A DNA stretch of 64,000 bases from a virus (IMGVR_UViG_3300042890_002891:66831-130830); one strand, 5' to 3'; shown: positions 4,655 to 26,525, numbered from the stretch's first letter. The notes: generated from the sequence alone by a model not told the origin. A program made the numbers and translations.

Positions 4655-4970
4655 CTATTTTTGATTACAAGGTATAACTACCTCGTTTGGCGTCAAGCGT
4701 TAGCTGCTACCAAATATTGTGAGTCATTTGCATTTCTCTTTTTTGTGTCTACGGCCGAGCTTCCCCAACCCTAACGGCTTCTACATTGCCGGACTGTCCA
4801 TTTCTGTACTCTTAACCCTGTCGAAACTATGCAGGCCCATTATAAAGAATACTACTGAATTGTGTTGGATGTTGCCATCCGCAAAAACCTGTGCAATATT
4901 CTTTATGGTGGACCTGGGGGGATTCGCACCCCCGTCCAGAATCCTTTTCTGTCTACTTCATACAGTCTTA
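4655..4970 (-). ncRNA. ssrA: circularly permuted (two-piece) tmRNA
   Basis: T-arm and CAGGUCC-A-CCA acceptor piece (ends 4906) precede a hairpin spacer and the GGGCCUG...UUCGAC coding piece (starts 4838); G3.U70 pair; tag ANDSQYLVAANA* at 4731-4693; outer ends approximate. Confidence 0.9.
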
Positions 4971-4978
4971 ACTGTTAT

Positions 4979-5863
4979 TTATTTTAATGAGTTAACTGAG
5001 TCTTCCCAGTCTTGATTGAATGTTGACATTTTTGTATCCCACTCAAACTTCATTCCACTACCTTCCCAAATTTTAGCAGTGTTTGAATTGGGATTCTGAT
5101 GTACAGCCTTCATAGCAGCCTGAATCTTGTTGCGTTGTGCATCAGTTGCGTTCTTCAAGATAAAAAGCACATAGTAGCCGACCTTGAGATTTTTGTTGGC
5201 AAGATCTTTTGCAGCCAATGGAATCAAGGCATCAGCTGACGATGGGCTCATACGATACATGCATGTGCCGTTGCCTGACTGTGCAAATTTTCTTGCCAGC
5301 TTGCTTTCAATGATACCGTAGTCAACTTCACCGTTTAGCAAAGCAGTGATAGTGCTTGGACTGCCAGCAGCAAAATGCACAGGTTTGTGAGTGGTCTTGA
5401 ATGACGCATTGATTCCGTTGTTGATGCTATTGACCATCACACTAGCAGGAATGGCATGTCCAATCCTGTACGATGATCCAGCTGTGACCATACGGGCAGC
5501 ATTCATTTCTGGTTTGGCTGAACAGATATAGTAAGAGTCATAGTGTACACGAATCAATTCTTTTTCGGTAAATGTCATTATATTGCAAGAGCCTTGTTTG
5601 CGGATACCGGCGTCTATGTCGCCTGCCCAGGGAAATAGCACAGGCATATTTTTATCTATTTTGTCAATAACAGCCGTTGCCAGGCACCCAGATCCTGGGT
5701 TGATGTAGTCAATTTTGAATTGGTTCTGCAGATCCTGGGTCAATGCACTGGTCTCCAGATAGAACCCACCTGTTTTTGAGCCAGTGTTCACAATGGTGAT
5801 GTCCTGTGCCGCAGCAGCCAAGGTCATGGTTGCAAACGCAACCAACGCTAGTAATTTCTTCAT
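4979..5863 (-). CDS. periplasmic solute-binding protein (TctC/Bug- or TAXI-like)
   Basis: Signal peptide, GSKTGG and ALLNGEVD motifs, adjacent to TctA. Confidence 0.6.
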   Translation of the reverse strand: MKKLLALVAFATMTLAAAAQDITIVNTGSKTGGFYLETSALTQDLQNQFKIDYINPGSGCLATAVIDKIDKNMPVLFPWAGDIDAGIRKQGSCNIMTFTEKELIRVHYDSYYICSAKPEMNAARMVTAGSSYRIGHAIPASVMVNSINNGINASFKTTHKPVHFAAGSPSTITALLNGEVDYGIIESKLARKFAQSGNGTCMYRMSPSSADALIPLAAKDLANKNLKVGYYVLFILKNATDAQRNKIQAAMKAVHQNPNSNTAKIWEGSGMKFEWDTKMSTFNQDWEDSVNSLK

Positions 5864-5878
5864 TTTTTTTCAGTCCTT

Positions 5879-7159
5879 TTAAAAATACAATGAATGGAGT
5901 CTAAGTCCATAATCCAACAACTTGTCACCGATAAAGTATCCAAATATCAGTCCAGTTGTGTCTCTAAGTCGTAGTGCCCATCCGAGTATGAGCAGACACA
6001 CCATGCATTGTAACACAAATACCATGTTGTAGTCAAGCCAGGCCTGATACAATATTGCCAAAACCAAGATGGCCAAAATGCCTGCACGCAACAGTTTCAA
6101 ATTGGTTCTTAGTATGGTGAGTACCTGTGTGACCAAGGGCCAGGCCATGATCAAACCAATTGCTGCCACAGTCATCTGCAGCAGTGCAGTTGCGCCAAAA
6201 ATTATCGACGCTGATGCAATTGATGCTGTGAATCCTTTCAACTCCATCAGCGACAACGCTATGGCTTCGCTGGGCACCAGAGGTAGCCCAAATATTATCA
6301 AGGGTATCAGCTGCGACACCGCTCCTGCATTGTTTGCTGTTTCTGCAGATATGATTCTTTCTCTAGGATCTGTGGTGGTTCTACAGGTTATGTTATAGCT
6401 CAGCATTGAACTAAAAATCATTGCCAGGCCAGGCATGAGTCCACCCACAAAACCCACGGCACTGTATTGCGTGATGCGCAGATAATTCAATCTGGGCCAC
6501 TTGACTGATGTTGGTATGTGGTTCACCGTCACAGCAGAATTAGACAGTCGATACAGCTGAGGAAATGTAAACAAACACAGCAGCACAATGTCCCAGGGAA
6601 CTCCTGCTGTGAGTGAGCTATTTCCAAAGGTAAGAATACCTGTCTCTAGATTAGAGTTATACCCAACCAGGCCCAACAAGATTCCTGACAGGCATAGCCC
6701 AATACTGGTTTTCAAATCGTCACTAGAATATTTTATTACACCTATCAAGGCAAACACAAACAACATTGATATCAGTTCAGTACGCAAGAAGTAACTCATT
6801 GCTGACAAGTGTGCTGCAAGAATCCAACATGCTGTTATAGATAAGATTGCTGCCACAAAACTACCGACCGCGGCAGCAGCAATTGTGTCTCCGTACTGCG
6901 ATGCTGGCAGTCTTGGTAGCTCTGCTACTGTGGGTATGCCACTGGGTTCTCCTGCAATCCCTGTGTACATGGTGGTAACACTACCGGTGAATTGACTAAT
7001 TTGAGTTAGTGCAGCATAGAACAAAAATATATCTACAGGCGCCCAGGTTATTAAAAACGGAGCAGATATTATCATGGCTATCAAGATGCCCATGCCAGGT
7101 AAAATTCCAATGGCCATACCCAGCAATGATCCAGCCAGGATGGCCAGCAGATGTTCCAT
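5879..7159 (-). CDS. tctA: tripartite tricarboxylate transporter permease TctA
   Basis: GILPGMG, ETANNAG..SQLIPLIIFGLP motifs; polytopic membrane protein. Confidence 0.85.
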   Translation of the reverse strand: MEHLLAILAGSLLGMAIGILPGMGILIAMIISAPFLITWAPVDIFLFYAALTQISQFTGSVTTMYTGIAGEPSGIPTVAELPRLPASQYGDTIAAAAVGSFVAAILSITACWILAAHLSAMSYFLRTELISMLFVFALIGVIKYSSDDLKTSIGLCLSGILLGLVGYNSNLETGILTFGNSSLTAGVPWDIVLLCLFTFPQLYRLSNSAVTVNHIPTSVKWPRLNYLRITQYSAVGFVGGLMPGLAMIFSSMLSYNITCRTTTDPRERIISAETANNAGAVSQLIPLIIFGLPLVPSEAIALSLMELKGFTASIASASIIFGATALLQMTVAAIGLIMAWPLVTQVLTILRTNLKLLRAGILAILVLAILYQAWLDYNMVFVLQCMVCLLILGWALRLRDTTGLIFGYFIGDKLLDYGLRLHSLYF

Positions 7160-8391
7160 CAGAATCCCACCTGGTCTGACGAATATGTCTTGCCGTCTGT
7201 TAATGAATAAAACTTTGACATTAATCCTTTTGTGCCAGCGGCTGTCACAGGGTTTCCGTAACGGTCGGTGTTCCAGATATTTTTATACTTGTCACTGTGC
7301 ATAACTTCCTGAATCGCAAGAAATTTTTTGTACCAACGTTTGCCTTCGTCAGTCCCAATAACATTGTTATAAAACATATTGCTATTGTAGCCTGATATTT
7401 TTTTGTCTTCCCATAATTTAGCTGAATAGTCAACGTCAGTAAAAAATCGTTTTATTTGAGTTATATGGTGTGTTGGCACTCGACCCAATGCACGATTATA
7501 CTCTATTCCCAGCGTGGAATAAAATCTATTAACAACTGTATCAGTTGATTGTTTAGCGGTGTGATAGTGTTTGAGAGCATATGCTGTTTTTAACAATAAG
7601 GACGGTATATTTCTACTAACAAAAAAATCCTCGTACCGATCAGAGATTGATGGCAACCATTCTGAACTGTCAACACTGAAAGTATACCAGTTGTTGTTTT
7701 TTTTAAACAATCTAGCTTTGGTGCCACCAAATAAATCACACCAATCATTGTGGTCGGTAGTTTTTACAGCATTGTGCCATGCCCAACTGGTGTCCATCCA
7801 AAATATACCGTGACTTCCATCCAGCCCAATGGGTATATCTGTATCATCGGCAATTGAAAACCAGTCATCGGCATCCTTGACTGTGGCCTGTGACATGGTA
7901 ATTTTTGTTTTGAGTAGTCTGTGAGCTATGGTTTTTAAATAAGGAATAGTAGCAATTGCTATCTCTCGATTGGTGGTGTTTACGGCTGTGTTGGCATCTT
8001 TGTCTAGTTTAACATCAACCACAATTTCGTCTAGATGTATATTGTTGTCAACAAAACTGACCAAGGCTGTGTGGCTGTCAGCGCCGCCGCTGTAAAATAA
8101 TCTAATATAGGAATAGGTGTCACGAAGCTCTTGAGCTCGTTGACGGCATAGCTCAGCCAGAGTCTCAACAGGCTCAACTGATGGATTTAGTCTGGCAAAG
8201 GCATCTTCGTACCAGTGAAAATGTGCCGTTGCATGTGGCAACGTATCGCGGTACAACACCGCATCAATTTTGTAATCAAACCGAGTCTCGGTATTGGTTT
8301 CATAGTTTTTTACAGTCCAATACATTGCCCTGTCTTGATAATGACTATTCTGAATAGATAGCAATTGTTTGGTTGAAAAATTGAATGCCAT
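7159..8391 (-). CDS. PP-loop (adenine nucleotide alpha-hydrolase) family protein
   Basis: LFYSGGADS PP-loop motif. Confidence 0.6.
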   Translation of the reverse strand: MAFNFSTKQLLSIQNSHYQDRAMYWTVKNYETNTETRFDYKIDAVLYRDTLPHATAHFHWYEDAFARLNPSVEPVETLAELCRQRAQELRDTYSYIRLFYSGGADSHTALVSFVDNNIHLDEIVVDVKLDKDANTAVNTTNREIAIATIPYLKTIAHRLLKTKITMSQATVKDADDWFSIADDTDIPIGLDGSHGIFWMDTSWAWHNAVKTTDHNDWCDLFGGTKARLFKKNNNWYTFSVDSSEWLPSISDRYEDFFVSRNIPSLLLKTAYALKHYHTAKQSTDTVVNRFYSTLGIEYNRALGRVPTHHITQIKRFFTDVDYSAKLWEDKKISGYNSNMFYNNVIGTDEGKRWYKKFLAIQEVMHSDKYKNIWNTDRYGNPVTAAGTKGLMSKFYSLTDGKTYSSDQVGF

Positions 8392-8448: not shown

Positions 8449-8522
8449 TGGTGCTCTCAACAAGGATCGAACTTGTGTCTATACATTACCAATGTATTGT
8501 ACTACCACTGTACTATGGGAGC
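8449..8522 (-). tRNA. tRNA-Thr(GGT)
   Basis: Cloverleaf, TTCGA T-loop, encoded CCA. Confidence 0.9.
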
Positions 8523-8881
8523 GTGGATTTCACGATAACAGGCCAGTGCAAGGTGTCTTGCCTGTGCCAGTCTATCAAGCACATACTTGGTCAATTCCGG
8601 ATCATCTCGACGACAACACGGACCACTGCGCCGTTCATCACAATTGGATTGTCTCCAATCATAACTGGTGGGAAAGAGTGGTTCCGATTCGGCGGGTTCA
8701 GAACGTTTCGGTTGTTTGGAATCTGTACAGTCTGATTGATTATTGTGTTGCATACATATACAACGCAGTAACCTGTTGTTGAGTTGACACAGATTGGCAA
8801 ACCTGCTAGAAGAACCCGACCGTAACACACAAGTATCTCGGAGTGACCATGTGCCAGAGGATCGGGCCGTGTTTCATTATC

Positions 8882-8955
8882 TGGAGCGGGTGAAGAGAAT
8901 CGAACTCTCGTCGTAACGTTGGCAACGTTCTGCTCTACCATTGAGCTACACCCGC
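8882..8955 (-). tRNA. tRNA-Gly(GCC)
   Basis: Cloverleaf, GCG start, U73, CCA. Confidence 0.92.
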
Positions 8956-8964
8956 TTATAAAAA

Positions 8965-9360
8965 TTAATTGTTGTCTGCTTGGCTGGCACAGTTTGGGCA
9001 CAGCAGTTGCAAGTTGTTTGCGGCATTGTTGTTGATGTTGCCATCTAGATGTTGCAGTACAAATTGCAAGGGTCGACCCAGATAGCTGTCAATGTTGCAG
9101 CATTCACAACGTTGTGGTCGAATCACCGCTGAATCAGCAAGACGTTGTTTGCGTTGTTCTACCACATCACTAGCCTTGACAGCAACAGGCACAGATTCAA
9201 TGGCCTTTGCCAACTGTTGCAGTTTGAATGGCGTCAGACTCTTGCGAGTAGCATCATCTGCTTGACATTTTATACTGCAAAAGCCCGGCGTAGATCGTTC
9301 CTGTGTCCAGGAATATCGATCTCTGCAATGTTCGCAATAATAAGTTTGATACACAGTCAT
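8965..9360 (-). CDS. HNH endonuclease-like zinc-binding protein
   Basis: CECC...QHLDGNINNNAANNLQLLCPNC; TAAATA box upstream; last HNH His is absent. Confidence 0.75.
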   Translation of the reverse strand: MTVYQTYYCEHCRDRYSWTQERSTPGFCSIKCQADDATRKSLTPFKLQQLAKAIESVPVAVKASDVVEQRKQRLADSAVIRPQRCECCNIDSYLGRPLQFVLQHLDGNINNNAANNLQLLCPNCASQADNN

Positions 9361-9388
9361 CCAGTATTTATCGCAAACATCACAGGCG

Positions 9389-9859
9389 TCAAGCTACCTT
9401 GAGGCTACGGAATCGATCAGCAGCATAACTGGCAGCAAAGGCTTCGGGCTTGACAAAAGGAATCACATTGCATGTGCCCTTAATATAGCCCACGGCCTGA
9501 CTGATAACACAGCTGGAACCGTGCATTTCGTTGGGGTTGATGTCAAGGTGTACTTCAACATCACGTCCATCTAGTACTTCAGCCAGTTGGAGATACAGTT
9601 CAGAAACCTTGTAGACTTCGGTCATGAGTCGCATGGCAGGTTTGCCGGGCTTGCTGTCATAGTCACGCTCACGCTGTACTTCACCAAACAACTTGCAGCC
9701 ATTGTTGCCGTTAATATGCACCACAATAGCCAACACATAGTCAGCATGCCATGCACCGTTGATTTTCACACGTTCACTGTCACAGCCCAGGTAAATTTTT
9801 GTTTCTGGTGTCTGTGTTCGAATAAACGCTGCCACCTGGGCAAAATCGATTTTTCTCAT
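9389..9859 (-). CDS. RNase H-like YkuK (DUF458) family protein
   Basis: IYLGCDS, EVHLDIN, KPEAFAASYAADR motifs; real start is MRKID (the longer ORF runs through a tRNA). Confidence 0.8.
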   Translation of the reverse strand: MRKIDFAQVAAFIRTQTPETKIYLGCDSERVKINGAWHADYVLAIVVHINGNNGCKLFGEVQRERDYDSKPGKPAMRLMTEVYKVSELYLQLAEVLDGRDVEVHLDINPNEMHGSSCVISQAVGYIKGTCNVIPFVKPEAFAASYAADRFRSLKVA

Positions 9860-9873
9860 TTGTTTCTTTCTTT

Positions 9874-9952
9874 TGGTACCCCGCCTCGGAGTCGAACCGA
9901 GAGAACTCTTCCTTTTGAGAGAAGCGACTTTGCCAGATTTGTCCAGCGGGGC
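9874..9952 (-). tRNA. tRNA-Leu(CAA), short variable region
   Basis: Cloverleaf, A73, CCA. Confidence 0.85.
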
Positions 9953-11260: not shown

Positions 11261-11345
11261 TGGTGCCCCAGGTCGGACTCGAACCGACACGCCACAAGGA
11301 CATGAGTTTCTAAGACTCACACGGCTACCATTACGTCACCGGGGC
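11261..11345 (-). tRNA. tRNA-Leu(TAG)
   Basis: Cloverleaf with variable arm, CCA. Confidence 0.92.
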
Positions 11346-11351
11346 ATTATT

Positions 11352-11427
11352 TGGTGCAACCTGTAGGAATCGAACCTACTTCAATGCCTCTTCAGGGCAC
11401 CGCTATAACCATATCAGCTAAAGTTGC
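11352..11427 (-). tRNA. tRNA-Phe(GAA)
   Basis: Cloverleaf, CCA. Confidence 0.88.
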
Positions 11428-11434
11428 ATGTTGT

Positions 11435-11525
11435 TGGCGGAAGGCTAGAGAGTTGAACTCTAAAGGCGCTATTAACGCTCGGCTGTTTTCAAGACAGATC
11501 CCATCGCCAATTGGGTTGGCCTTCC
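11435..11525 (-). tRNA. tRNA-Ser(TGA)
   Basis: Long variable arm, G73, CCA. Confidence 0.9.
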
Positions 11526-11531
11526 GTTGAG

Positions 11532-11609
11532 TGGAGCACAGGGTGAGATTTGAACTCACGATTTTTCAGATTTGCAATCTGGTGCGTTGGACCGCTCCGC
11601 CACCTGTGC
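11532..11609 (-). tRNA. tRNA-Cys(GCA)
   Basis: Cloverleaf, U73, CCA. Confidence 0.9.
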
Positions 11610-11616
11610 TTGATGT

Positions 11617-11690
11617 TGGTCTCTCGAGAGTGAATCGAACACTCGTCATATGGTCCCAAACCATAAATTCTACCATTAAACTACCGAGAG
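11617..11690 (-). tRNA. tRNA-Pro(TGG)
   Basis: Cloverleaf, C1-G72, CCA. Confidence 0.9.
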
Positions 11691-11694
11691 AATC

Positions 11695-11768
11695 TGGTAC
11701 CTCGTGACAGAATCGAACTGCCGTCTGCGCCGTGTAAAAGCGCGGCCCTACCATTAGACGAACGAGGC
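11695..11768 (-). tRNA. tRNA-Val(TAC)
   Basis: Cloverleaf, CCA. Confidence 0.9.
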
Positions 11769-12018: not shown

Positions 12019-12046
12019 TCAACTGCGGATATTTTTGGATGGGATG

Positions 12047-12313: not shown

Positions 12314-12359
12314 AAATTTTCCTTTATAGGATGAACACCAGGATCATCTTTGCTAATAT

Positions 12360-14594: not shown

Positions 14595-14668
14595 TGGTAG
14601 CCTGTCCGGGTAACGATCCTGGGTCGCTCGATTATCAGTCGAGTGCTCTGCCATTGAGCTAACGGGCT
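14595..14668 (-). tRNA. tRNA-Ile(GAT)
   Basis: Cloverleaf, CCA; atypical ATCG T-loop. Confidence 0.88.
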
Positions 14669-14678
14669 ATTCTAAAAC

Positions 14679-14752
14679 TGGTACGGGTGGAAGGAATCGA
14701 ACCTTCACTAACAGAGTCAAAGTCTGTTGTGCTACCACTACACAACACCCGA
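14679..14752 (-). tRNA. tRNA-Gln(TTG)
   Basis: Cloverleaf, CCA. Confidence 0.9.
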
Positions 14753-14760
14753 ATAAAACT

Positions 14761-14835
14761 TGGTGGTTGTGGTTGGTATCGATCCAACCTCCTCGCCTTA
14801 TGAGGGCGGTACGCATCCATCTACGTCACACAACC
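14761..14835 (-). tRNA. tRNA-CAT (elongator Met or Ile2)
   Basis: Cloverleaf, CTCATAA loop, CCA. Confidence 0.8.
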
Positions 14836-14840
14836 AAATT

Positions 14841-14916
14841 TGGGGTATCCTACCGGTATCGATCCGGTACTACCGCTTTCACAGAGCAGGGTGCAGGCCA
14901 CTACACTAAGGATACC
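14841..14916 (-). tRNA. tRNA-His(GTG)
   Basis: G-1:C73 pair, cloverleaf, CCA. Confidence 0.9.
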
Positions 14917-15117: not shown

Positions 15118-15193
15118 TGGTAGGACCACTCGGACTCGAACCGAGGATTTACAGGTTAAAAGCCTGATGTTATAACCGCTTAACTATGATCCC
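15118..15193 (-). tRNA. tRNA-Lys(TTT)
   Basis: Cloverleaf, CCA. Confidence 0.92.
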
Positions 15194-15196
15194 ATG

Positions 15197-15271
15197 TGGT
15201 CCCTCCACCGAGATTTGAACTCGGACGTCACGGATTAAGAGTCCGGCATGCTGCCTTAACATCTTGAAGGG
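15197..15271 (-). tRNA. tRNA-Lys(CTT)
   Basis: Cloverleaf, CTCTTAA loop, CCA. Confidence 0.88.
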
Positions 15272-15332
15272 TTGGTATGTAAAATTGTCTTTCACGTGCC
15301 AACCCGGACCTACACAGGATCTGGAGTTGACA

Positions 15333-15359
15333 CTATAGTTTAGGAGATTTTCGTTTCAT
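15333..15359 (-). CDS. putative Lys-rich leader peptide MKRKSPKL
   Basis: 3 of 8 codons are AAA; the stop codon overlaps one arm of alternative hairpins that reach into tRNA-Lys(CTT). Confidence 0.5.
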   Translation of the reverse strand: MKRKSPKL

Positions 15360-15625
15360 ATAGTTCTTTCTTTGGTGTGACTGTTGTTATTTTCTGCGTG
15401 TGAATTTGCGCAGAAATTTTAAAAAATAATATTTCAACCCGCGTAGTGGGGCCAACTCAAATGCGAATTGTCCCGGCAGCTCACGCGGGACACTGCGTAG
15501 GCTCGATCAATGACTTCTTTGCTGCTTATGCTGCACTTCAGTTGTTTAATAACACTCTGCGACAGAGTTTAGCCGGATTACATCAAATATTCTTGTAACC
15601 TATCAGCTGCTCAGGATCATTTTAA

Positions 15626-17177: not shown

Positions 17178-17251
17178 TGGTGCCCCACGACAGAATCGAA
17201 CTGCCATCACAGGATTACAAAACCAGTGTACTGCCATTGTACTAGTAGGGC
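17178..17251 (-). tRNA. tRNA-Thr(TGT)
   Basis: Cloverleaf, CCA; two mismatches in the anticodon stem. Confidence 0.85.
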
Positions 17252-17306
17252 GAAAAAGAACAGTTCAGGGACCTAACTTCTTAAGATGAAGAGTATGAAC
17301 TATATT

Positions 17307-17385
17307 TGGCTCCGCATCTGGGGTTCGAACCCAGCTAATCATTGATTAACAGTCAAGTCCGTGCACCTAGCTCGGATTCTGCGGA
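17307..17385 (-). tRNA. tRNA-Asn(GTT)
   Basis: TCC start, G73, CCA. Confidence 0.88.
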
Positions 17386-17394
17386 ATAAATTGT

Positions 17395-17484
17395 TGGCGG
17401 AACGAAAGAGACTCGAACTCTTAAAGCGGCTTTCACCACTCGACGGATTAGCAATCCGCTCCAATACCATTATGGGACCGTTCC
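17395..17484 (-). tRNA. tRNA-Ser(GCT)
   Basis: Long variable arm, G73, CCA. Confidence 0.92.
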
Positions 17485-17600
17485 AGGAAAATACTTAGCA
17501 GCATTGTGCTCTGCTAGAAAAATTTAACGTGGAGCCTTTCACTTGCCACGATTGGTACATCAAAGTACTTGAAGGTTACACCCAACCTCTAAGAGTGACT

Positions 17601-17689
17601 TGGTGGAAGTGGTAGGATTCGAACCTACAACGTTTCTTATGTGGCGGATTTACAGTCCGTTGCCTTCAACCAATTCGGCACACACTTCC
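17601..17689 (-). tRNA. tRNA-Tyr(GTA)
   Basis: Variable arm, A73, CCA. Confidence 0.92.
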
Positions 17690-17695
17690 TAATAA

Positions 17696-17770
17696 TGGTG
17701 GAGGATAGGAGAATCGAACTCCTGACTGAAGCTTGCAAAGCTACTGCGTTCCCAATTACGCCAATCCCCC
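17696..17770 (-). tRNA. tRNA-Ala(TGC)
   Basis: G3.U70 pair, CCA. Confidence 0.92.
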
Positions 17771-17777
17771 GTTATCT

Positions 17778-17854
17778 TGGTCGGTCCTGACGGATTTGAA
17801 CCGCCAACTTCTAGTTTCGAAGACTAGCACTCTATCCAGTTGAGTTAAGGACCG
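17778..17854 (-). tRNA. tRNA-Arg(TCG)
   Basis: Cloverleaf, A20, CCA. Confidence 0.9.
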
Positions 17855-17859
17855 ATATC

Positions 17860-17934
17860 TGGCGTACCCCCAAGGACTCGAACCCTGACTTAACGGTGTT
17901 GGAGACCGTTGTGCTGCCATTACACTAGAGATAC
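17860..17934 (-). tRNA. tRNA-Trp(CCA)
   Basis: Cloverleaf, G73, CCA. Confidence 0.9.
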
Positions 17935-18159: not shown

Positions 18160-18195
18160 AAAAGAAAAAACCCTGGAGTTTTTAGTTCCAGGGTC
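18160..18195 (-). terminator. attenuator terminator GACCCTGGA-loop-TCCAGGGTT-TTTTCTTTT
   Basis: 9-bp stem plus U-tract; its 5' arm can alternatively pair with 18238-18253. Confidence 0.85.
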
Positions 18196-18221
18196 TTTTG
18201 AATTTGCGGATGTTAACTTAG

Positions 18222-18350
18222 TTACTCATCACACCTCTCAAGAGATCCCGGAACGCCTGGAATACTATTCATGCGACCATACGCATGTGACCAGGCGGAT
18301 ACCTGGGTAAACATGGGTTTCGTCAACAGTGAACAGAGAGTTGTTTTCAT
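18222..18350 (-). CDS. leader peptide, 42 aa (MKTTLCSLLTKPMFTQVSAWSHAYGRMNSIPGVPGSLERCDE)
   Basis: Manual translation; lies between a perfect promoter and a terminator; all 20 amino acids, 36 distinct codons. Confidence 0.7.
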   Translation of the reverse strand: MKTTLCSLLTKPMFTQVSAWSHAYGRMNSIPGVPGSLERCDE

Positions 18351-18360
18351 CTTAAATCCT

Positions 18361-18389
18361 ATTATACTTTATTTATCATTTGATGTCAA
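18361..18389 (-). promoter_or_regulatory. perfect sigma70 promoter TTGACA-N17-TATAAT with an embedded TAAATA box
   Basis: Exact consensus 10 nt upstream of the leader ATG. Confidence 0.85.
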
Positions 18390-18743: not shown

Positions 18744-18803
18744 AACTGTAATTATCTGTTTGCTGTAGTGCAACCATATAAATAATTCACAACGGAGTCA
18801 TAC

Positions 18804-19511
18804 ATGGAATACAAAACAATTTATCGTGGCAAAGAACTTCCTTTTGCGGATTATTTTGAAAGCAAAAAAGCCGGTCTGGTAGCAGAATTTCTAGCACAGT
18901 ATCCTGACTTCTCTAGCACAGAAGTGCTGAACAATTCAGAGATCATGCAAAACAAGATCACTGCCAAAATTTCTACCACCCAGGGCAGAGGCACTGCTTG
19001 GAAATTGCTACAGGTCAAAGGCAACTACTACGGTGAGCCTCCTTACTATGGTTCACAACCCTTTGAAGAATCAAAGTCGAAATTTCCAACCATGATAAGC
19101 ATCATTGATTATTTTGGATTTGATAATCTTGGCAGCGTGACCTATTCTGTACTGGAAGCCAACGGCATCATTGCCAGACACACAGGACCTGAAAATCGTG
19201 CAGGTAAATTTATTCGTTGCCACATACCTTTGATTGTACCCGAAGGTGATCTGGGTATGGAGATCAACGGAGAAGTAGTTGACTGGAGTGAATCCTTTGG
19301 ATTCAACAATCAAATCATACACAGTGTCTGGAACAACACTGATTATCGTAGACTGGTATTGATGATTGATATAAAACGCTCGTACATTGGGTTGCCTGAT
19401 GCGCCTCCGTGGACAGAAGAAACAAATGCTGATGCAGTTCCTTTTGAAAAGACTCACAACAAAGTGACATATGGCCCTCAAGAGATTATACCAGCAGTGA
19501 ACTTGAGATAA
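18804..19511 (+). CDS. aspartyl/asparaginyl beta-hydroxylase-like 2OG-Fe(II) oxygenase
   Basis: YSVL..IARHTG...RCHIPLIVP...HSVWN.T.YRRLVLMID. Confidence 0.85.
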   Translation: MEYKTIYRGKELPFADYFESKKAGLVAEFLAQYPDFSSTEVLNNSEIMQNKITAKISTTQGRGTAWKLLQVKGNYYGEPPYYGSQPFEESKSKFPTMISIIDYFGFDNLGSVTYSVLEANGIIARHTGPENRAGKFIRCHIPLIVPEGDLGMEINGEVVDWSESFGFNNQIIHSVWNNTDYRRLVLMIDIKRSYIGLPDAPPWTEETNADAVPFEKTHNKVTYGPQEIIPAVNLR

Positions 19512-19520
19512 CTCTGTAGT

Positions 19521-20198
19521 ATGAAACTCCAAACAATTTATCGTGGCAAAGAACTTCCTTTCGTGGATTTTTTTGAAAGCAAAAAAGAAGATCTCATAAA
19601 AGAATTTCTAGTACAATATCCTGAATTCCACAGTATCGAGCCGTTGCATAATTTAGACCTCTTGCAAAACAAGATCACAGGGGCATTGGGCAATAGAACC
19701 CACCCTGGATCTCCTTGGGAAATATTGCAAATCAAAGGTACTTATTTTGGCGAACCTCCATATTATGGCTCACAACCCTTTGAAGAATCAAAGGCAAAAT
19801 TTCCAACAGCAACAAGTATTATTGATTATTTTGGATTTAGTGTCGTTCGGTCAATTTCGTATTCGGTTCTGGAACCGCACAGTACCATAGCCAGACACTG
19901 GGACCATGAAAATCATGAAGGCAAATTCATACGTGTTCATGTACCCTTGATTGTGCCCCATGGTGATCTGGGCTTAGAGGTCAATGGGGAAGTGGTTGAT
20001 TGGAGTGAATCCTTTGGCTTCAACAACCTAAGATTACACAGCGCCTGGAACTTCACGGACCATCGTAGACTGATATTATTACTTGATCTAGAACGCTTGC
20101 ATCTGGGGTTGCCTGATGAGCCATCCTGGTCCGAAACAACCAATGCTGATACCGTACCCTTTCCCAAGACACCTGTTTTTTTATCAAAGCGCAATTGA
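19521..20198 (+). CDS. aspartyl/asparaginyl beta-hydroxylase-like oxygenase (tandem paralogue)
   Basis: Same motifs; highly similar to 18804-19511. Confidence 0.85.
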   Translation: MKLQTIYRGKELPFVDFFESKKEDLIKEFLVQYPEFHSIEPLHNLDLLQNKITGALGNRTHPGSPWEILQIKGTYFGEPPYYGSQPFEESKAKFPTATSIIDYFGFSVVRSISYSVLEPHSTIARHWDHENHEGKFIRVHVPLIVPHGDLGLEVNGEVVDWSESFGFNNLRLHSAWNFTDHRRLILLLDLERLHLGLPDEPSWSETTNADTVPFPKTPVFLSKRN

Positions 20199-20205
20199 TC
20201 TAAAC

Positions 20206-20297
20206 TGGTACCAGCGGAGAGGATCGAACTCTCTCAAGAACGCTAATCTGGCGCTAAAAGGTGTATAAGACCTCTCTGACTACCAAGTCTCGCTGGC
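20206..20297 (-). tRNA. atypical tRNA with TAT anticodon, long variable arm and tiny D-arm
   Basis: GCCAGCG/CGCTGGT acceptor, canonical T-arm, CTTATAC loop, ACCA. Confidence 0.7.
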
Positions 20298-20302
20298 ATG
20301 CA

Positions 20303-20376
20303 TGGAGCGGGATAAGAGAATCGAACTCTTGACTGGAGATTGGAAATCTCTAATTTTGCCATTAAACTAATCCCGC
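20303..20376 (-). tRNA. tRNA-Gly(TCC)
   Basis: Cloverleaf, U73, CCA. Confidence 0.92.
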
Positions 20377-20389
20377 ATGAATTGAATTT

Positions 20390-20605
20390 GAGAGCCTACG
20401 CCGCGTTTATCGTAGATTTATTCAGGACTTACCGGCCGCCTAGCCTGACCTCGAGCACGATGGATATCACTTGGGCTCCGTCCAGTACAGTCCCCATTAC
20501 GGACCTCCGCAGTTGCCCGCGGGTGGGAGTTGAACCCATTAACCTTTTACTGCTTTGGTCCTTCGAAGAAACCTAGACAGCGTGACTTCACTTGCTGACA
20601 CTCTC
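20390..20605 (-). ncRNA. structured RNA of unknown class
   Basis: GAGAG/CTCTC closure, internal GGGTTCAACTCCC T-loop-like hairpin, AGTGTCAGCAAGT motif shared with 21156-21326. Confidence 0.5.
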
Positions 20606-20807
20606 AAAACTAAAAATGTAGTAGGCTGAGACATAACTCAATTGGTTTGCGCTTCGATGTTTAACGCCATTAAAGGATCCGCAACGCCATTTACTCCGGC
20701 ACCAGGCCGGAACTACAAAAAAGGTTGAGCAGCAGAGGACTTGCACCTCACAGTAACTAGTATAGGAGACTTCCGTCTCTACTGCATCTATGCTCTACTC
20801 ATAAAAT

Positions 20808-20888
20808 TGGTGGACCCCGTCGGTACTTCGCCGCACTCCTAGTTCAGTAACGTTACTTCTGAACCAACGCATCTCACGTTGAGAGCCC
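20808..20888 (-). ncRNA. tRNA-like RNA with an Ala-type acceptor and no normal anticodon loop
   Basis: GGGCTCT/GGGGTCC-ACCA with G3.U70; 11-nt anticodon-position loop. Confidence 0.6.
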
Positions 20889-20953
20889 ATAAACTAATCA
20901 AGGGCTTGTAGACCAAACTACAATTTACCGGTTTCTAGACGAACCCCTAAACT

Positions 20954-21029
20954 TGGTGGGCTATCGAGGACTCAAACCTCGCAACATCTCTATGTCAAAG
21001 AGACAGGATTTCCAATCACTCTAAAGCCT
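20954..21029 (-). tRNA. divergent tRNA-Val(GAC)
   Basis: TCTCT-TTGACAT-AGAGA arm, T-arm, ACCA; weak acceptor and D stems. Confidence 0.65.
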
Positions 21030-21035
21030 ATTATT

Positions 21036-21149
21036 TGGTGGAGACAGCCTACACACATGCACTACACACCTGTGCCGTCCACTTTATCCGCTGGTCTCAG
21101 CAGTCGCGCCGTTCTAGCAGCGCCTTGCACAAGATCAGTTTCAGTCTCC
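21036..21149 (-). ncRNA. CCA-terminated structured RNA
   Basis: GGAGAC/GTCTCC terminal stem followed by ACCA; no cloverleaf. Confidence 0.55.
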
Positions 21150-21155
21150 GAAAAT

Positions 21156-21326
21156 TGGTGATTAGTGCTGCTGCGACACAGCGACATCCCCGGAGCGAGA
21201 GCGTAGGAACTGAATCTACGGGTTTAGCACCTCCGGGGTCGAACAGTCAGGACAACTACTGGTACCGTACTTGCTGACACTTGTTCAAGGTGTGTCGCGT
21301 TTTTGTACTTTCATTTCCAACTAACC
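21156..21326 (-). ncRNA. CCA-terminated structured RNA (about 170 nt)
   Basis: GGTTAGT/ACTAATC-ACCA terminal stem; internal GCGACAC/GTGTCGC and CCCCGGAG/CTCCGGGG stems. Confidence 0.6.
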
Positions 21327-21798
21327 ATATAGAAACACACTCAAAACTGCTGTTAAACCCTTGCAGGGGCATGCCTAGTTAAAAAATGTGTTCTTATATG
21401 GCTGGCAATGTTATGAGGGCTCTTACCCCATCGTTGTTTGTATAGGCTGCGCGACCTATACATCCCGGACACACTCCCTGACCCGGCAATGCTTACTTTG
21501 TGGCTCTTGCTTTCCACTTGATTCTGATCATATAGAAACACACTAGAGTTTTACGATAAACTACGCTCCTGAGTTTCTGCTCAGGACCCCATAGGTCTGC
21601 CTATGTTTCTAATGTGTTTTTATATAACAAAATAGTGAACAGGATTTGCACCTGTGCCCACAGCCTGTTGACAAGACTGCACTCTCCTACTAATCTACCA
21701 CCATATAGGAACACACTGGCACTCAATTGTCAATTGCAGAGCATAATAATTCTACGCCCTATGAGTTACGCATACTCTTCCAATGTGTTTTTATATGG
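21325..21798. repeat. three tandem hairpin elements with the conserved closing stem CATATAGRAACACACT...AATGTGTTYTTATAT
   Basis: Copies at 21325-21401, 21529-21626 and 21701-21798; further copies at 15044-15122 and 22015-22255. Confidence 0.75.
21632..21704 (-). ncRNA. degenerate tRNA-like element (TCA at the centre of the anticodon loop, no encoded CCA)
   Basis: ACAGG-TGCAAAT-CCTGT T-arm, CAGTCT/AGGCTG stem, ATGGTGG/TCACTAT acceptor. Confidence 0.45.
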
Positions 21799-21858
21799 TA
21801 TAGTAAAAACGTAATGGTTACGATTCCATTGCTACTTGATCATGTAGCCGATTTTGTT

Positions 21859-21933
21859 TGGCGCCACGGACGGGAATCGAACCCGTCTTGGTCGGATAGA
21901 CAATCCGTTGCCCTCCCAGAGAGCTACCGTGGC
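21859..21933 (-). tRNA. tRNA-Asp(GTC)
   Basis: Cloverleaf, G73, CCA. Confidence 0.9.
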
Positions 21934-21939
21934 AAAACT

Positions 21940-22014
21940 TGGTAGAGCATAGCGGAGTCGAACCGCTCTTAGTGGACTGAAAACCCACTGTCCTAACCGA
22001 TAGACGAATGCTCC
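21940..22014 (-). tRNA. tRNA-Glu(TTC)
   Basis: Cloverleaf, CCA. Confidence 0.92.
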
Positions 22015-22487: not shown

Positions 22488-22511
22488 AAAAAAACCCGCT
22501 TGCTGCGGGTC
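22488..22511 (-). terminator. attenuator terminator GACCCGC-AGCAA-GCGGGTT-TTTTT
   Basis: GC stem plus U-tract; its 5' arm overlaps the antiterminator arm CAAAGACCC. Confidence 0.85.
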
Positions 22512-22536
22512 TTTGAAGGATGCGTTTTTGATCACA

Positions 22537-22626
22537 TCAACAAAGACCCAGGCTCCCGTCACGCTCATAGGCCATCCCCGAATCAATTGTCGGTATGACT
22601 GCTGAGAGGATAGTGAGCCGGTTCAT
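22537..22626 (-). CDS. leader peptide, 29 aa (MNRLTILSAVIPTIDSGMAYERDGSLGLC)
   Basis: Leaderless ATG 6 nt after TAGACT-N17-TATACT; 26 distinct codons of 29; last codons form an antiterminator arm. Confidence 0.65.
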   Translation of the reverse strand: MNRLTILSAVIPTIDSGMAYERDGSLGLC

Positions 22627-22686
22627 AAGTGTAGTATATATGCCTTTGCGACAAAAGTCTATTATTTTGGCAAAATTTGTGGTGGT

Positions 22687-23512: not shown

Positions 23513-23590
23513 TGGTGCGGTGGGCGGGATTCGAACCCGCACTGTACAGATTTTAAGTCTGTTGTCTCCTACCTATTGCACTACCACCGC
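23513..23590 (-). tRNA. tRNA-Leu(TAA), short variable region
   Basis: Cloverleaf, A73, CCA. Confidence 0.88.
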
Positions 23591-23597
23591 ATTGCTC

Positions 23598-23672
23598 TGG
23601 TCCGGCGTGACGGAATCGAACCGCCATGTACAGGGTAGAAACCTGCTATATTATCCATTATATGAACGCCAG
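23598..23672 (-). tRNA. tRNA-Arg(TCT)
   Basis: Cloverleaf, CCA. Confidence 0.88.
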
Positions 23673-23677
23673 ATACT

Positions 23678-23752
23678 TGGTGCGACTCCTTGGTTTCGAT
23701 CCAAGTACCAAGACCTTATGAGGGTCCTGCTCTCCCATTGAGCTAGAGTCGC
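23678..23752 (-). tRNA. tRNA-CAT (Met or Ile2)
   Basis: Cloverleaf, CCA, ATCG T-loop; TTGACA-N17-TACAAT promoter upstream. Confidence 0.85.
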
Positions 23753-23794
23753 TATTTTTACATTGTAACAGGAAAGTTATTTAGTGTCAACAGA

Positions 23795-23989
23795 TTATTT
23801 CACAGACAGCAACGCCTGTAGATCCTGAATTTGTTTTTGCAAACGCTCAATTTCTGCGGCTGCTTCATCCAAGAGATCAGCAATACGGTCAGTCTCACCT
23901 TGTTCCACACTTCTGCGTCCAGGAATCTGTCTGCGTATCTCGGCTCGCTTGCGTAATCGGTACACCAGACCTTGTTCTTGCAAGGTCAT
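23795..23989 (-). CDS. hypothetical coiled-coil protein
   Basis: ORF coupled to the upstream gene by an ATGA overlap. Confidence 0.6.
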   Translation of the reverse strand: MTLQEQGLVYRLRKRAEIRRQIPGRRSVEQGETDRIADLLDEAAAEIERLQKQIQDLQALLSVK

Positions 23990-24410: not shown

Positions 24411-24643
24411 GATTTCTCCAGAGTCCGTAATAGCGTTTTTTCCCGAAATGTGGCCAGGCGTTGGTCAAGTTCGGCCCTGACATCCCAGTGTTGTTTGCTG
24501 AGTCTTAAAACCCAGGCACTCAACAGGCCCAGCTGATATGCAATTTCATCTGCGTCCGTGTATTGGCCGCCACTGCTGACTGCGTTTAGCACATCAGTTA
24601 TTTCTTTGTGATTTTTTACGTGAACTTTTAGGTTGCTATACAT
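24407..24643 (-). CDS. hypothetical protein
   Basis: Coupled ORF. Confidence 0.55.
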   Translation of the reverse strand: MYSNLKVHVKNHKEITDVLNAVSSGGQYTDADEIAYQLGLLSAWVLRLSKQHWDVRAELDQRLATFREKTLLRTLEKS

Positions 24644-25097
24644 GCCATATCTCCTGGAACCCCTCTTCCAGTGTGGGTTCTTTCAAATTTTGTAACATAC
24701 TTAGCATCACATGATCCGGAATGCTTTTGCCTGGACGGCCAGCCAGTCTACGAGCAAGTTCCACAGGTTCGGGTGTGCCAAACACCACAGCAATATGTTC
24801 ATAGTCGGGCAGCATGTGAAACTTCTTTCGTCGGCTGGCCACAGTGGTTGAGGTTTGATCCCAGATCACACTGTGACCATGTTCCCGTGCAAACACCACC
24901 TGTTGAGCCATTAGATCCACTGCTCGAGGCATGTAGTCTCGAAACACTTGATTGTAGGTTTGGCCTTGTGCTCTAGCATAGTCTTCCACAAACGTGTCTG
25001 TACTAACCACAGTCAAGCCCAGGGCCCATATTTGGTTCCGGATCCAGGTGCTTTTACCCGAACCTGGCACTCCAATCATTTGATAACATTTTGGCAT
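24636..25097 (-). CDS. P-loop polynucleotide kinase-like protein (AAA_33)
   Basis: GVPGSGKSTW, STD, WDQT, R...R lid. Confidence 0.8.
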   Translation of the reverse strand: MPKCYQMIGVPGSGKSTWIRNQIWALGLTVVSTDTFVEDYARAQGQTYNQVFRDYMPRAVDLMAQQVVFAREHGHSVIWDQTSTTVASRRKKFHMLPDYEHIAVVFGTPEPVELARRLAGRPGKSIPDHVMLSMLQNLKEPTLEEGFQEIWHV

Positions 25098-25984
25098 CCT
25101 GCCTCCAGATAGTTTCTAACCCAGGCCAAGCGAGCCTGTTCGTCCATCACAGTATAAGTGTCGATGTTGTTGCGTATGTGATCCAACAGCGGGTAGTATT
25201 CCTCGTCAATCTGTTCTCGAAACTGTTGAGTCAACAACTTGTCAGTTCTTGGGTTACGTGCCACCCACTTGGCAGTCAGGTAGTAGGGTGACTTCAACTT
25301 GGAACTCACATTACCTTCATCGGTATAGAAAACAAAACCTTCGTGCTTGACAGTCTTGACTTCTTGCAATAGTTGACCCATTGAAGTGTAAAACGACTGC
25401 ACAATGCGTGTGCGAAACGCATTTTGCAACAGCATCATGATTGCAGCATTGGCCTCAATTGGACTGCACCATTCGTTCTTGCGCATGCCCAACAAGTACA
25501 TGCCTGGCTGCTCAGGAACAATGTGTGGATCACTTTCATGAACACATTCAAACATAAATGTGTGGCCTTCATACTGCTTGCAAGTGGCACGATAACGATC
25601 TATGTTGTCACCAATCATTTCACGTGCCATGTCAACATAAGGACTGTCAGTGCTACCAGTTGTGCTGATCAGTACATCATCCCGATACCATGTGCAAGCC
25701 ACCATGAAACCGTTGACCTTGCGATAAGCAGTCACATGAACATTGTCAGCCAGCACAGGTGCAGACTTTTCAATGCCGTAGTTGTAGATCTTGGTGAATG
25801 GATAAGCAACCAAGTTGAAGTCACGATCCACAATGCTTCCACGACATTCGGCAATGTATTCGTCCCAGAGGCTGTCGTAGAACACTTTCTTCTTGTACTT
25901 GAGCACGTAGATACCATCGCCACATTCTCGGCGGTTCACCAGATTGGATGATTCCACATACTGTTTTAGTTTTTCTCTAAACAT
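25076..25984 (-). CDS. T4 Rnl1-like RNA ligase
   Basis: ECRG, F.KI.N, motif I KVNG, FE, EGFV, KLKS..Y. Confidence 0.85.
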   Translation of the reverse strand: MFREKLKQYVESSNLVNRRECGDGIYVLKYKKKVFYDSLWDEYIAECRGSIVDRDFNLVAYPFTKIYNYGIEKSAPVLADNVHVTAYRKVNGFMVACTWYRDDVLISTTGSTDSPYVDMAREMIGDNIDRYRATCKQYEGHTFMFECVHESDPHIVPEQPGMYLLGMRKNEWCSPIEANAAIMMLLQNAFRTRIVQSFYTSMGQLLQEVKTVKHEGFVFYTDEGNVSSKLKSPYYLTAKWVARNPRTDKLLTQQFREQIDEEYYPLLDHIRNNIDTYTVMDEQARLAWVRNYLEAGCQNVIK

Positions 25985-26525
25985 GATGACCCTTGATCTT
26001 GCCTTTTAGGGCTTGTGCAATAGCACGTTCCATGGTGATAGCAATTGCGCCAGTGGCATCCATGCCCACGTCCAACGCACGATAATTTTCCAGGCTGCTG
26101 GTGCCACCGTGCAAGTGTCCGTGAAAATGAACAGCACCGCGATGCATCTGATCCCACTCTGCTATGGGATAATGAAACATCACTACCTTGGTTTCGTTGA
26201 ACTGTGCATCCAGGTACTTGTGTATCTGTGCAAAGCAGTCACGGAAATCCTGATCTTGCAACAGCTTGCGGTCGTGGTTGCCTTCAACCAGAATCTTGAC
26301 TCCATTCAGTCGACGCACAGTTGCCACGGCTTTTTCCGCAGGCAAGAATGCCACGTCACCCAGAATGTACACAGTGTCGTCTGCGCCAATCAAGTCGTTC
26401 CATTCTCGAATCATGGCCTCGTTCATGTAGGCCACATCGTTACGAAACCGTGCCCGTGACTCAGGGCAAAATTTCATTATGTTCTTGTGTCCCCAGTGGA
26501 GATCACTTGTGATCCAGGTTGTCAT
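25977..26525 (-). CDS. calcineurin-like metallophosphoesterase
   Basis: SDLH, LGD, GNHD, HYP, HGHLH motifs. Confidence 0.9.
   Translation of the reverse strand: MTTWITSDLHWGHKNIMKFCPESRARFRNDVAYMNEAMIREWNDLIGADDTVYILGDVAFLPAEKAVATVRRLNGVKILVEGNHDRKLLQDQDFRDCFAQIHKYLDAQFNETKVVMFHYPIAEWDQMHRGAVHFHGHLHGGTSSLENYRALDVGMDATGAIAITMERAIAQALKGKIKGHHV

Follow-up and report, generated by a model that had tools for sequence, protein, structure and literature searches.

The stretch of DNA analysed here, which we refer to as the window, comprises 64,000 nucleotides (IMGVR_UViG_3300042890_002891:66831-130830), that is, bases 66831-130830 of a 262-kilobase (kb) viral contig from IMG/VR with an estimated completeness of 75%. 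Our subject is a region of ~22 kb, at 4.6-26.5 kb of the window, in which a lake-water phage carries genes for transfer RNAs (tRNAs), leader-like elements, a transfer-messenger RNA (tmRNA) and a set of RNA repair enzymes. The family-B DNA polymerase of this phage shares 49% identity with that of Sinorhizobium phage Phosso and 46% with that of Agrobacterium phage Atu_ph07, and we therefore regard it as an uncultured jumbo phage to which the isolates are only distant kin; a database search returned no near-identical phage record. Transcription units are set apart by promoters of the sigma70 type, several of them perfect or nearly so, and by a few intrinsic terminators. Unrelated, mobile cargo genes are scattered through the 22-kb stretch, namely a rubrerythrin, a TctA-like transporter, an HNH endonuclease, a B12-radical-SAM enzyme and two Asp/Asn hydroxylases.

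The region contains ~32 tRNA genes, all on the minus strand, and every tRNA of the 262-kb contig lies inside the window. ARAGORN at default settings called 29 tRNAs, all on the minus strand, and Rfam recovered 26; a slightly relaxed ARAGORN threshold adds Ser(UGA) at 11435-11525 and Asn(GUU) at 17307-17385, so that all 20 amino acids are covered by anticodon. The CCA end is encoded in every ARAGORN-called tRNA, and a tRNA-like Rfam match at 21631-21704 lacks it. The set is near-minimal yet complete, with several arrays driven by sigma70-type promoters. A preliminary description of the region, made from its sequence, had listed tRNAs for all 20 amino acids, a tmRNA and a kinase/ligase/phosphoesterase trio, and these three entries are borne out, the first by anticodon, the second by ARAGORN, the Rfam family RF04321 and a G3.U70 pair, and the third by catalytic motifs that are intact in all three proteins. 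The inventory is real, and it is ordinary for a jumbo phage.

Two leaders with strong comparative signatures precede tRNA genes in this region. The first, leader 1, stands before the main tRNA array:

17178..17934, minus strand: main tRNA array Trp, Arg(UCG), Ala, Tyr, Ser(GCU), Asn, Thr(UGU) (ARAGORN, Rfam)
18160..18389, minus strand: leader 1, composed of promoter, open reading frame (ORF), antiterminator and terminator
18389-18361, minus strand: sigma70 promoter, 12/12
18350-18222, minus strand: near-leaderless ORF of 42 codons containing all 20 amino acids
~18263-18243, minus strand: antiterminator candidates, inside the leader 1 ORF
18195-18160, minus strand: intrinsic terminator, a GC-rich hairpin followed by a U-run

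Homologues of leader 1 were collected with a search anchored on the terminator, which yielded 27 distinct units. The terminator is kept in all homologous units, and in all 27 the ORF has 42-63 codons and ends 22-31 nucleotides (nt) before it. All 20 amino acids are present in 23 of the 27 peptides and 19 in the remaining four. Simulation puts the chance of containing all 20 at 1.5-4% for 42-48 residues of background or family composition, and among same-length segments taken from the phage's own proteins just 12 of 291 have the full set. A peptide has about one Cys, one His and one Tyr, found at 18, 24 and 19 distinct positions across the family, respectively; this shifting of the rare residues argues for selection on their presence and not on a protein fold. 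A scan of the intergenic ORFs of the region showed nothing like classical codon runs. The leader 1 ORF is intact in a relative with ~90% nucleotide identity, where three of five single-base changes fall at third codon positions.

Located within the ORF, the antiterminator motif stops 17-24 nt short of the end of the stop codon and is complementary to the 5' arm of the terminator, so that antiterminator and the two terminator arms show three-way complementarity. Motif and arm covary (T:A 14, C:G 6 and G:C 22 versus A:T 1), with a mean z of -2.2 against shuffles; these tallies are anchored on the motif because a MAFFT alignment was shifted by one column in a subgroup, and column-based covariation was dropped for this element. 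Among the homologues the motif is read in three frames and is always spanned by the ORF, which suggests that it is conserved as RNA while the ORF is nonetheless kept over it. In most units 19-20 amino acids precede the point of antiterminator masking. In the 26 units with mapped tRNAs, a tRNA array on the same strand lies 220-1000 nt further downstream, and in the 27th (L240) the downstream array rests on collinearity with the window. Between the leader 1 terminator and tRNA-Trp of the window, no promoter-like site of at least 9/12 is found. A small hairpin holding the leader 1 stop codon (18245-18200, minus strand) occurs in every homologue; its sequence varies and its pairing is kept. The idea that leader 1 is a mere 3' untranslated region or small-RNA unit was dropped after the homologous units had been compared.

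The second element lies directly upstream of a tandem pair of tRNA-Lys genes:

15118..15271, minus strand: tandem tRNA-Lys(CUU) at 15197-15271 and tRNA-Lys(UUU) at 15118-15193 (ARAGORN, Rfam)
15269..15372, minus strand: Lys micro-leader, composed of a Shine-Dalgarno (SD)-like site, ORF, hairpin A:B, AU-rich hairpin and segment C
15359-15333, minus strand: ORF of 8 codons, MKRKSPKL, whose stop codon overlaps hairpin arm A
15333-15324 and 15305-15296, minus strand: arms A and B, respectively, followed by the AU-rich hairpin
15278-15269, minus strand: segment C, complementary to B, covering the RNase P site and the first 3 nt of tRNA-Lys(CUU)

This micro-leader was found by a BLAST search of intergenic gaps against relatives fetched through their ligase genes, and alignment then showed the SD site, the micro-ORF and the hairpin. 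A DNA search pattern made of the stop codon and the hairpin only, with the ORF left out, retrieved more than 119 IMG/VR stretches. The resulting 100 distinct copies, all in uncultured phages, are followed by tRNA-Lys, which is Lys(CUU) in 87 and Lys(UUU) in 13; the upstream neighbour varies (Ile, Phe, Arg, Pro or Leu tRNAs, or an ORF), and the downstream tRNA-Lys is constant. Every one of the 100 ORFs has the form M-K-...-K-x-stop, with Lys at the second codon and again one codon ahead of the last sense codon, and both fixed codons vary synonymously between AAA and AAG. The ORF has 6-8 codons, its length shifting by whole codons, and an SD-like site precedes it in 89 of the 100 copies. Across ~2,000 tRNA upstream regions, other tRNA types yielded such micro-ORFs only as 0-3 chance matches per type.

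Helix A:B is 94.7% paired and covaries, with one position reading UA in 33 copies, AU in 23 and CG in 5. For B:C, a tally anchored on the tRNA start gives A:T 34, T:A 29 and G:C 6 among 95 cells, and matched B:C duplexes have a mean energy of -9.5 kcal/mol versus -6.65 when permuted. A distant BLAST search found no match to the Lys leader in cultured phages. Applied to 185,579 species genomes, the pattern matched 120 stretches, of which three are real, all of them on phage-like contigs of metagenome-assembled genomes (MAGs); no bacterial chromosomal copy was seen among these genomes. Two further observations concern the same element. One Ser codon of the micro-ORF changes from TCT to AGT between close relatives, and in L342 (G012:C1 ~139600-139700), a relative without the ligase, tRNA-Lys(UUU) is truncated and the Lys leader and tRNA-Lys(CUU) are intact.

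A third candidate, leader 2 (22490..22661, minus strand), consists of a weak promoter, a 29-codon ORF (22626-22537) and a terminator. Its layout resembles that of leader 1, and the last ORF codons are complementary to the foot of the terminator. Only three copies turned up in all, with an intact one in the closest relative. The preliminary description had counted three leader-peptide sensors; two of them, leader 1 and the Lys micro-leader (27 and 100 copies), are conserved elements, and leader 2 may be a further leader or just a 3' untranslated region or small-RNA unit.

In the attenuators of amino-acid operons (trpL, hisL, thrL, ilv), a promoter-proximal ORF is followed by a terminator and an antiterminator whose choice is set by the position of the ribosome. 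The features of leader 1 fit the anatomy of such a trp-type attenuator in which the regulatory codons would be the whole amino-acid alphabet. At the head of the main array, a strong promoter would give rise to a transcript with a near-leaderless ORF of ~42 codons, sampling the 20 amino acids ahead of the terminator. A ribosome reading to the stop codon would mask the antiterminator segment, the terminator would form and transcription would end; a ribosome stalled earlier for lack of any charged tRNA would leave the antiterminator free, and RNA polymerase would enter the tRNA genes. Leader 1 thus shares with the classical leaders a short ORF, an intrinsic terminator and a predicted ribosome-dependent alternative antiterminator. 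It differs from them in preceding tRNA genes, in containing all 20 amino acids without runs of one or a few, in its near-leaderless mRNA and in having its antiterminator inside the ORF, at the 3' end. In mycobacteria, short polycysteine ORFs that are leaderless have been described as attenuators (bioRxiv 10.1101/834739). They have in common with leader 1 a leaderless short ORF used to sense amino-acid supply for downstream genes, but they concern one amino acid and protein-coding operons in a bacterium, not a phage.

For the Lys micro-leader, a ribosome-operated switch on tRNA-Lys maturation is plausible in its logic, and the pairing evidence for it is moderate. A ribosome at the stop codon of the micro-ORF would free arm B, which would then mask the 5' end of tRNA-Lys(CUU); if the ribosome stalled at a Lys codon instead, A:B would stay closed, and tRNA-Lys would be free for folding and processing. 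In translational attenuation of the erm/cat kind, occupancy of a very short ORF remodels a downstream hairpin; the ORF, the SD site and hairpin A:B are strongly conserved here, and the putative target is a tRNA 5' end instead of a ribosome-binding site.

Several points weigh against reading these elements as ribosome-operated controls. The leader 1 of the window belongs to a subgroup with a divergent, weaker antiterminator; its own copy deviates from the family motif (z = -1.4), and only 16 amino acids precede masking in it. For the Lys element, the column-based B:C count beats all shuffles, but one slid control (+2) equals it, and 26 of the 95 anchored B:C cells are unpaired. A:B is also far more stable (-17 to -21 kcal/mol) than B:C, so that masking, if it occurs, would be a kinetic and short-lived effect. 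The Lys residues at the second codon and close to the C-terminus might merely aid efficient initiation and termination. A strong promoter lies directly after the leader 2 terminator. Finally, the leader homologues are kin of one another, and their counts are not counts of independent events. Taken with these reservations, the features of leader 1 and of the Lys micro-leader fit ribosome-mediated control of tRNA supply, and as both have strong comparative signatures, tRNA expression in this phage is probably not constitutive.

The remaining translation-related genes lie at the two ends of the region. At the first end is the tmRNA:

4602..4998, minus strand: two-piece (circularly permuted) tmRNA (ARAGORN tmRNA*; Rfam RF04321)

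It scores 93.9 bits against RF04321, for which the gathering score is 47. The order is permuted, with the acceptor piece, ending in CCA, ahead of the coding piece; the tRNA-like domain carries G3.U70 in its acceptor stem, and a tag ORF with resume codon and stop is present. The tag predicted by ARAGORN is ANDSQYLVAANA; it ends in AANA, and the canonical (A)LAA ending is not present in the window's tmRNA. Tags of relatives (L021, L036, L082-L088) read ANDEQFALAA or ANDSQFALAA, which are host-like, end in LMVA, or are 23-28 residues long, and from this spread of endings it appears that the canonical ClpXP-type ending is often lost. No gene for SmpB (PF01668) was found in the 262-kb contig, 75% complete, and host SmpB would therefore be needed. 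Two-piece tmRNAs encoded by aquatic phages have already been described (PMC9004378). That of the methylophage Melnitz is likewise a permuted ssrA in an aquatic phage, apparently relying on host SmpB (PMC9004378). Compared with tmRNAs of the Melnitz type, the tag here ends in ANA and not in LAA, no glutamine riboswitch is seen in this phage region, and the position relative to the tRNAs differs among the relatives of this phage.

At the other end lie the candidate RNA repair genes and a small companion:

24636..25097, minus strand: polynucleotide 5'-kinase-like P-loop protein, 153 amino acids (AAA_33 at 9e-21; weak PNK/Pnkp-specific matches)
25076..25984, minus strand: Rnl1-type RNA ligase, 302 amino acids (PF09511, RNA_lig_T4_1; phrog_562 at 1.7e-47)
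25977..26525, minus strand: metallophosphoesterase, 182 amino acids, candidate 3'-end healing enzyme (PF00149; phrog_547 at 1.9e-51; similar to 1xm7)
23795..23989, minus strand: o64, a protein of 64 amino acids, found beside the ligase in 65 of 80 relatives with permuted gene order

The kinase has the P-loop and the catalytic Asp34, and the ligase has nucleotidyl-transferase motifs I, IV and V (KxNG, EGFV, KLK); a sequence search found no solved homologue of the latter. The metallophosphoesterase has the motifs DxH, GD and GNHD and is of the Pnkp type, not of the T4 DxDxT type; its activity is predicted. No family in Pfam, PHROG or NCBIfam accounts for o64 and several small ORFs, and o64 has only weak, sub-threshold matches to coiled-coil-type Pfam families. 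Among the 80 ligase-bearing relatives, the phosphoesterase adjoins the ligase in 79, the kinase in 65 and o64 in 65, in permuted orders.

Two known systems combine the same chemistries. In phage T4, Pnk and Rnl1 mend tRNA-Lys cleaved by PrrC, a classical case (PMC1484252, PMC2610378). T4 and this phage have in common a phage tRNA cluster, a 5'-kinase, 3'-end healing, an Rnl1-type ligase and a focus on tRNA-Lys. Unlike in T4, the three activities sit on three separate proteins here, and the phosphatase is a metallophosphoesterase, as in bacterial Pnkp, where T4 Pnk has a fused DxDxT domain. Furthermore, no PrrC-like opponent has been identified for this phage, and a close relative dispenses with the ligase. 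Bacterial Pnkp/Hen1, a kinase-metallophosphoesterase-ligase fusion (matched through PDB 4gp7 and 4xrp), has the same three chemistries including the metallophosphoesterase healing domain. It differs in that the genes are split here, the ligase belongs to the Rnl1 family, a conserved 64-amino-acid partner is added, and no Hen1 methyltransferase was seen.

We compared the arrangement of these parts in three groups: the closest relative, 14 long contigs picked by the Lys leader alone (four of them complete genomes), and the ligase-bearing relatives, 11 of them long. The closest relative (G012:C1) is a 183-kb contig in a 'Haliscomenobacter sp.' MAG, collinear with the window at ~90% nucleotide identity. 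The ligase is precisely missing from it, and the overlapping kinase and phosphoesterase genes are kept. Among the 14 Lys-leader contigs, a ligase homologue occurs in one and in none of the four complete genomes, a permuted tmRNA occurs in 6-7, and most hold only a distant phosphoesterase paralogue. Long ligase-bearing contigs usually have all parts, and a homologous tmRNA is present in 8 of the 11, but the distances differ: the tmRNA lies 20-55 kb from the ligase in several, and the main tRNA array is ~60 kb away in two. Many, although not all, of the 80 ligase-bearing loci have tRNA arrays within 10 kb. As to the isolates, Phosso has a permuted tmRNA and no ligase, and Atu_ph07 has neither.

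The preliminary description had joined all these parts into one integrated island, a reading that independent variation of the components among relatives was to refute. The integration is not borne out by the ligase-free relative at 90% identity, by the counts for ligase (1/14) and tmRNA (6-7/14), or by parts that can lie 20-60 kb apart, and the refuting pattern is largely what is observed, the components varying independently in the closest relative, the 14 contigs and the isolates. Being modules independent of one another, tRNA set, tmRNA and repair enzymes should not be taken for one system because they cluster in a single genome. Judged by these comparisons of sequence, the region is a patchwork of modules, each gained, lost and relocated on its own, in a tRNA neighbourhood prone to recombination, and the view that the parts share a translation theme without being a co-inherited unit is supported.

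The closest relative also differs from the window in its cargo. It lacks window segments 4979-8391 (TctA-like transporter set), 12020-14592 (sulfotransferase-like set), 15371-17144 (B12-radical-SAM enzyme) and 18749-20200 (two Asp/Asn hydroxylases), and has instead a class-V aminotransferase and a class-II aldolase beside the kinase; the tRNA arrays look like preferred sites of cargo insertion. Part of this contig (G012:C1:124000-160000) corresponds to L240, L342 and L343, and a second contig of the 'Haliscomenobacter' MAG, C90, carries a related permuted tmRNA. Either phage DNA was binned into this MAG by mistake, or the placement hints at the host; the tmRNA tags of relatives, which resemble those of proteobacteria, speak against a host among the Bacteroidota.

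The other tRNA genes of the region, with their promoters and interspersed genes, are as follows:

8449..9952, minus strand: scattered tRNAs Thr(GGU) 8449-8522, Gly(GCC) 8882-8955 and Leu(CAA) 9874-9952 (ARAGORN)
8965-9360: HNH endonuclease, between these scattered tRNAs
9389-9871, minus strand: PF04308 RNase-H-like ORF (phrog_11311), also between the scattered tRNAs
11261-11768, minus strand: tRNA array Val(UAC), Pro, Cys, Ser(UGA), Phe, Leu(UAG) (ARAGORN)
11254-11226, minus strand: perfect sigma70-type promoter, downstream of the Val...Leu(UAG) array
14595..14915, minus strand: tRNA array His, Met(CAU), Gln, Ile(GAU) (ARAGORN, Rfam)
18437-18510, minus strand: atypical tRNA(CAU) (ARAGORN; just 18.9 bits with the Rfam tRNA model)
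18561-18533, minus strand: perfect promoter of the atypical tRNA(CAU) (promoter scan)
20206..20376, minus strand: tRNA-Gly(UCC) and a 92-nt tRNA(UAU) with a long variable arm (ARAGORN)
21859..22014, minus strand: tRNA-Glu and tRNA-Asp (ARAGORN)
22480-22452, 22380-22352 and 22322-22293, minus strand: tandem promoters upstream of tRNA-Glu/Asp
23513..23790, minus strand: tRNA array Met(CAU), Arg(UCU), Leu(UAA), with an 11/12 promoter at 23790-23762

The PF04308 ORF at 9389-9871 stands directly 3' of a tRNA here and in relatives L001, L020, L030 and L044, and may encode a tRNA-processing or tRNA-linked nuclease. Some of the tRNAs are unusual in their variable arms. tRNAs for Leu, Ser and Tyr typically have a long arm and those for Ile do not; such an arm is found in tRNA(UAU) (20206-20297, minus strand), which has discriminator A and a weak tRNA-Sec-like Rfam match (29 bits) and is represented by 46 distinct copies among the fetched loci of relatives. 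Leu(CAA) at 9874-9952 and Leu(UAA) at 23513-23590 (minus strand), at 78-79 nt, are without the long variable arm expected of bacterial tRNA-Leu, which is present in Leu(UAG) at 11261-11345.

Between these genes lies a block of candidate RNAs:

20377..21704, minus strand: ORF-free block with non-tRNA or degenerate tRNA-like RNAs
20725-20802 and 20808-20888, minus strand: units of this block
20954-21029, minus strand: degenerate Val(GAC), in the same block
21040-21149, minus strand: 110-nt RNA with homologues in relatives
within the block, minus strand: RNA candidates of 171 nt and 130 nt

The several non-decoding, CCA-ended RNAs of the preliminary description are weakly founded. A scan for a 7-bp closing stem with NCCA over the same 16 kb gave 68 matches on the minus strand, ~30 of them tRNAs, and 24 on the opposite strand; with so high a background the motif is common by chance, and the scan was rejected as proof of CCA-ended RNAs. 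Only the 110-nt RNA has homologues, three in number (L061:13642-13750, L076:14040-14150 and L175:3448-3556), and these end in a U-run, not in CCA. Its ends are conserved, with a closing stem GGAGAC/GTCTCC and an exchangeable inner hairpin, and the ACCA end is found only in the window. No homologues of the 171-nt and 130-nt candidates were found among the fetched loci, and the block 20806-21804 is missing or replaced in the relative at 90% identity. A conserved RNA of ~150 nt at ~20467-20611 (minus strand) was seen in at least 7 loci and stands directly 3' of a tRNA in relatives; its T-arm-like hairpin, GGGTTCAACTCCC, is accompanied by two hairpins that covary. Rfam searches of 17.9-22.7 kb at permissive E-values returned no family that accounts for the non-tRNA RNAs, this one included; matches to Trp and Thr leaders in the same interval cover only terminator hairpins and were set aside.

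We favour, as rather probable, the reading that this is a translation-support region of an uncultured jumbo phage, with a regulated tRNA supply and with tmRNA and repair as separate modules. What such a region is for can be answered in more than one way. The strongest of the rival answers, to which we give nearly even weight, is ordinary translational self-sufficiency with feedback economy: the tRNAs would serve codon usage or make up for host RNA shut-off, the leaders would tune their output, and tmRNA and repair would be independent accessories. The near-minimal but complete tRNA set and the independent variation of the accessory modules agree with this, as does a pan-amino-acid leader, which would answer any shortage and not one nuclease target. 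tmRNA and other translation genes are, moreover, common in huge phages (PMC7162821), and two-piece tmRNAs are known from aquatic ones (PMC9004378). It leaves unexplained, however, why Lys alone has a dedicated second switch, and why healing and sealing enzymes stand beside tRNA arrays in many relatives.

Phage tRNA arrays, in T5 and others, have been published as an escape from tRNA-targeting defence (PMC10264068, PMC12409363). What is common to T5-type arrays and this phage is a large tRNA set that could replace host tRNAs destroyed by defence; leader-peptide control is, as far as searched, not reported in those papers. We think it unlikely that host anticodon nucleases have selected the whole region, as a unit, to be a single coordinated island of counter-defence that senses, resupplies, repairs and rescues. 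All parts are present within 22 kb, the Lys-specific leader adjoins tRNA-Lys, the target of PrrC and PARIS (PMC1484252, PMC12409363), phage tRNAs as counter-defence are already on record (PMC10264068), and repair genes lie within 10 kb of tRNA arrays in many ligase-bearing relatives. Against a selected unit speak the missing ligase of the 90%-identical relative and the independent variation of the components, the scarcity of the ligase among leader-bearing long contigs (1/14; 0/4 complete genomes) beside tmRNA in 6-7 of 14, the 20-60 kb between parts in relatives and the unrelated cargo genes between them here; nor has an anticodon nuclease or a host been identified for this phage.

The least probable alternative, that the leaders are no sensors at all, leader 1 being a small protein gene or a small RNA with a terminator and the Lys micro-ORF serving only to load ribosomes or to mark a processing hairpin in the tRNA precursor, can point to common motifs in the leader 1 peptides (for example DRTPE and a conserved Trp) and to the TCT to AGT switch as a hint of selection on the Lys peptide, but we think it improbable, since all-20 content is held while rare residues move, homologues read through the conserved RNA motif in differing frames, a three-way complementarity links the antiterminator with both terminator arms, and leader 1 always heads a tRNA array.

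Within the reading of a regulated tRNA supply with separate tmRNA and repair modules, host nucleases that cleave tRNA are one plausible selective driver, by analogy with the systems named above. A bolder form of it, which we hold to be possible but doubtful, is a closed surveillance loop in which the all-20 leader and the Lys micro-ORF would release phage tRNAs exactly when host tRNAs are depleted or cleaved, for instance by PrrC- or PARIS-like nucleases, with repair enzymes and tmRNA as a back-up in some lineages.

A full-text literature search found no account of leader-peptide control of phage tRNA genes. These genes have hitherto been treated as constitutive helpers, and whether they serve codon supply or escape from tRNA-cleaving immunity has been debated for decades. 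If the control proposed here is real, the phage would gauge decoding capacity through the ribosome itself and respond with tRNA synthesis. Attenuation of the trp type would then apply to RNA genes as well, with the pan-amino-acid design as a natural sensor of all tRNAs. The debate itself would become testable, by asking what induces read-through: starvation, codon demand or tRNA cleavage.

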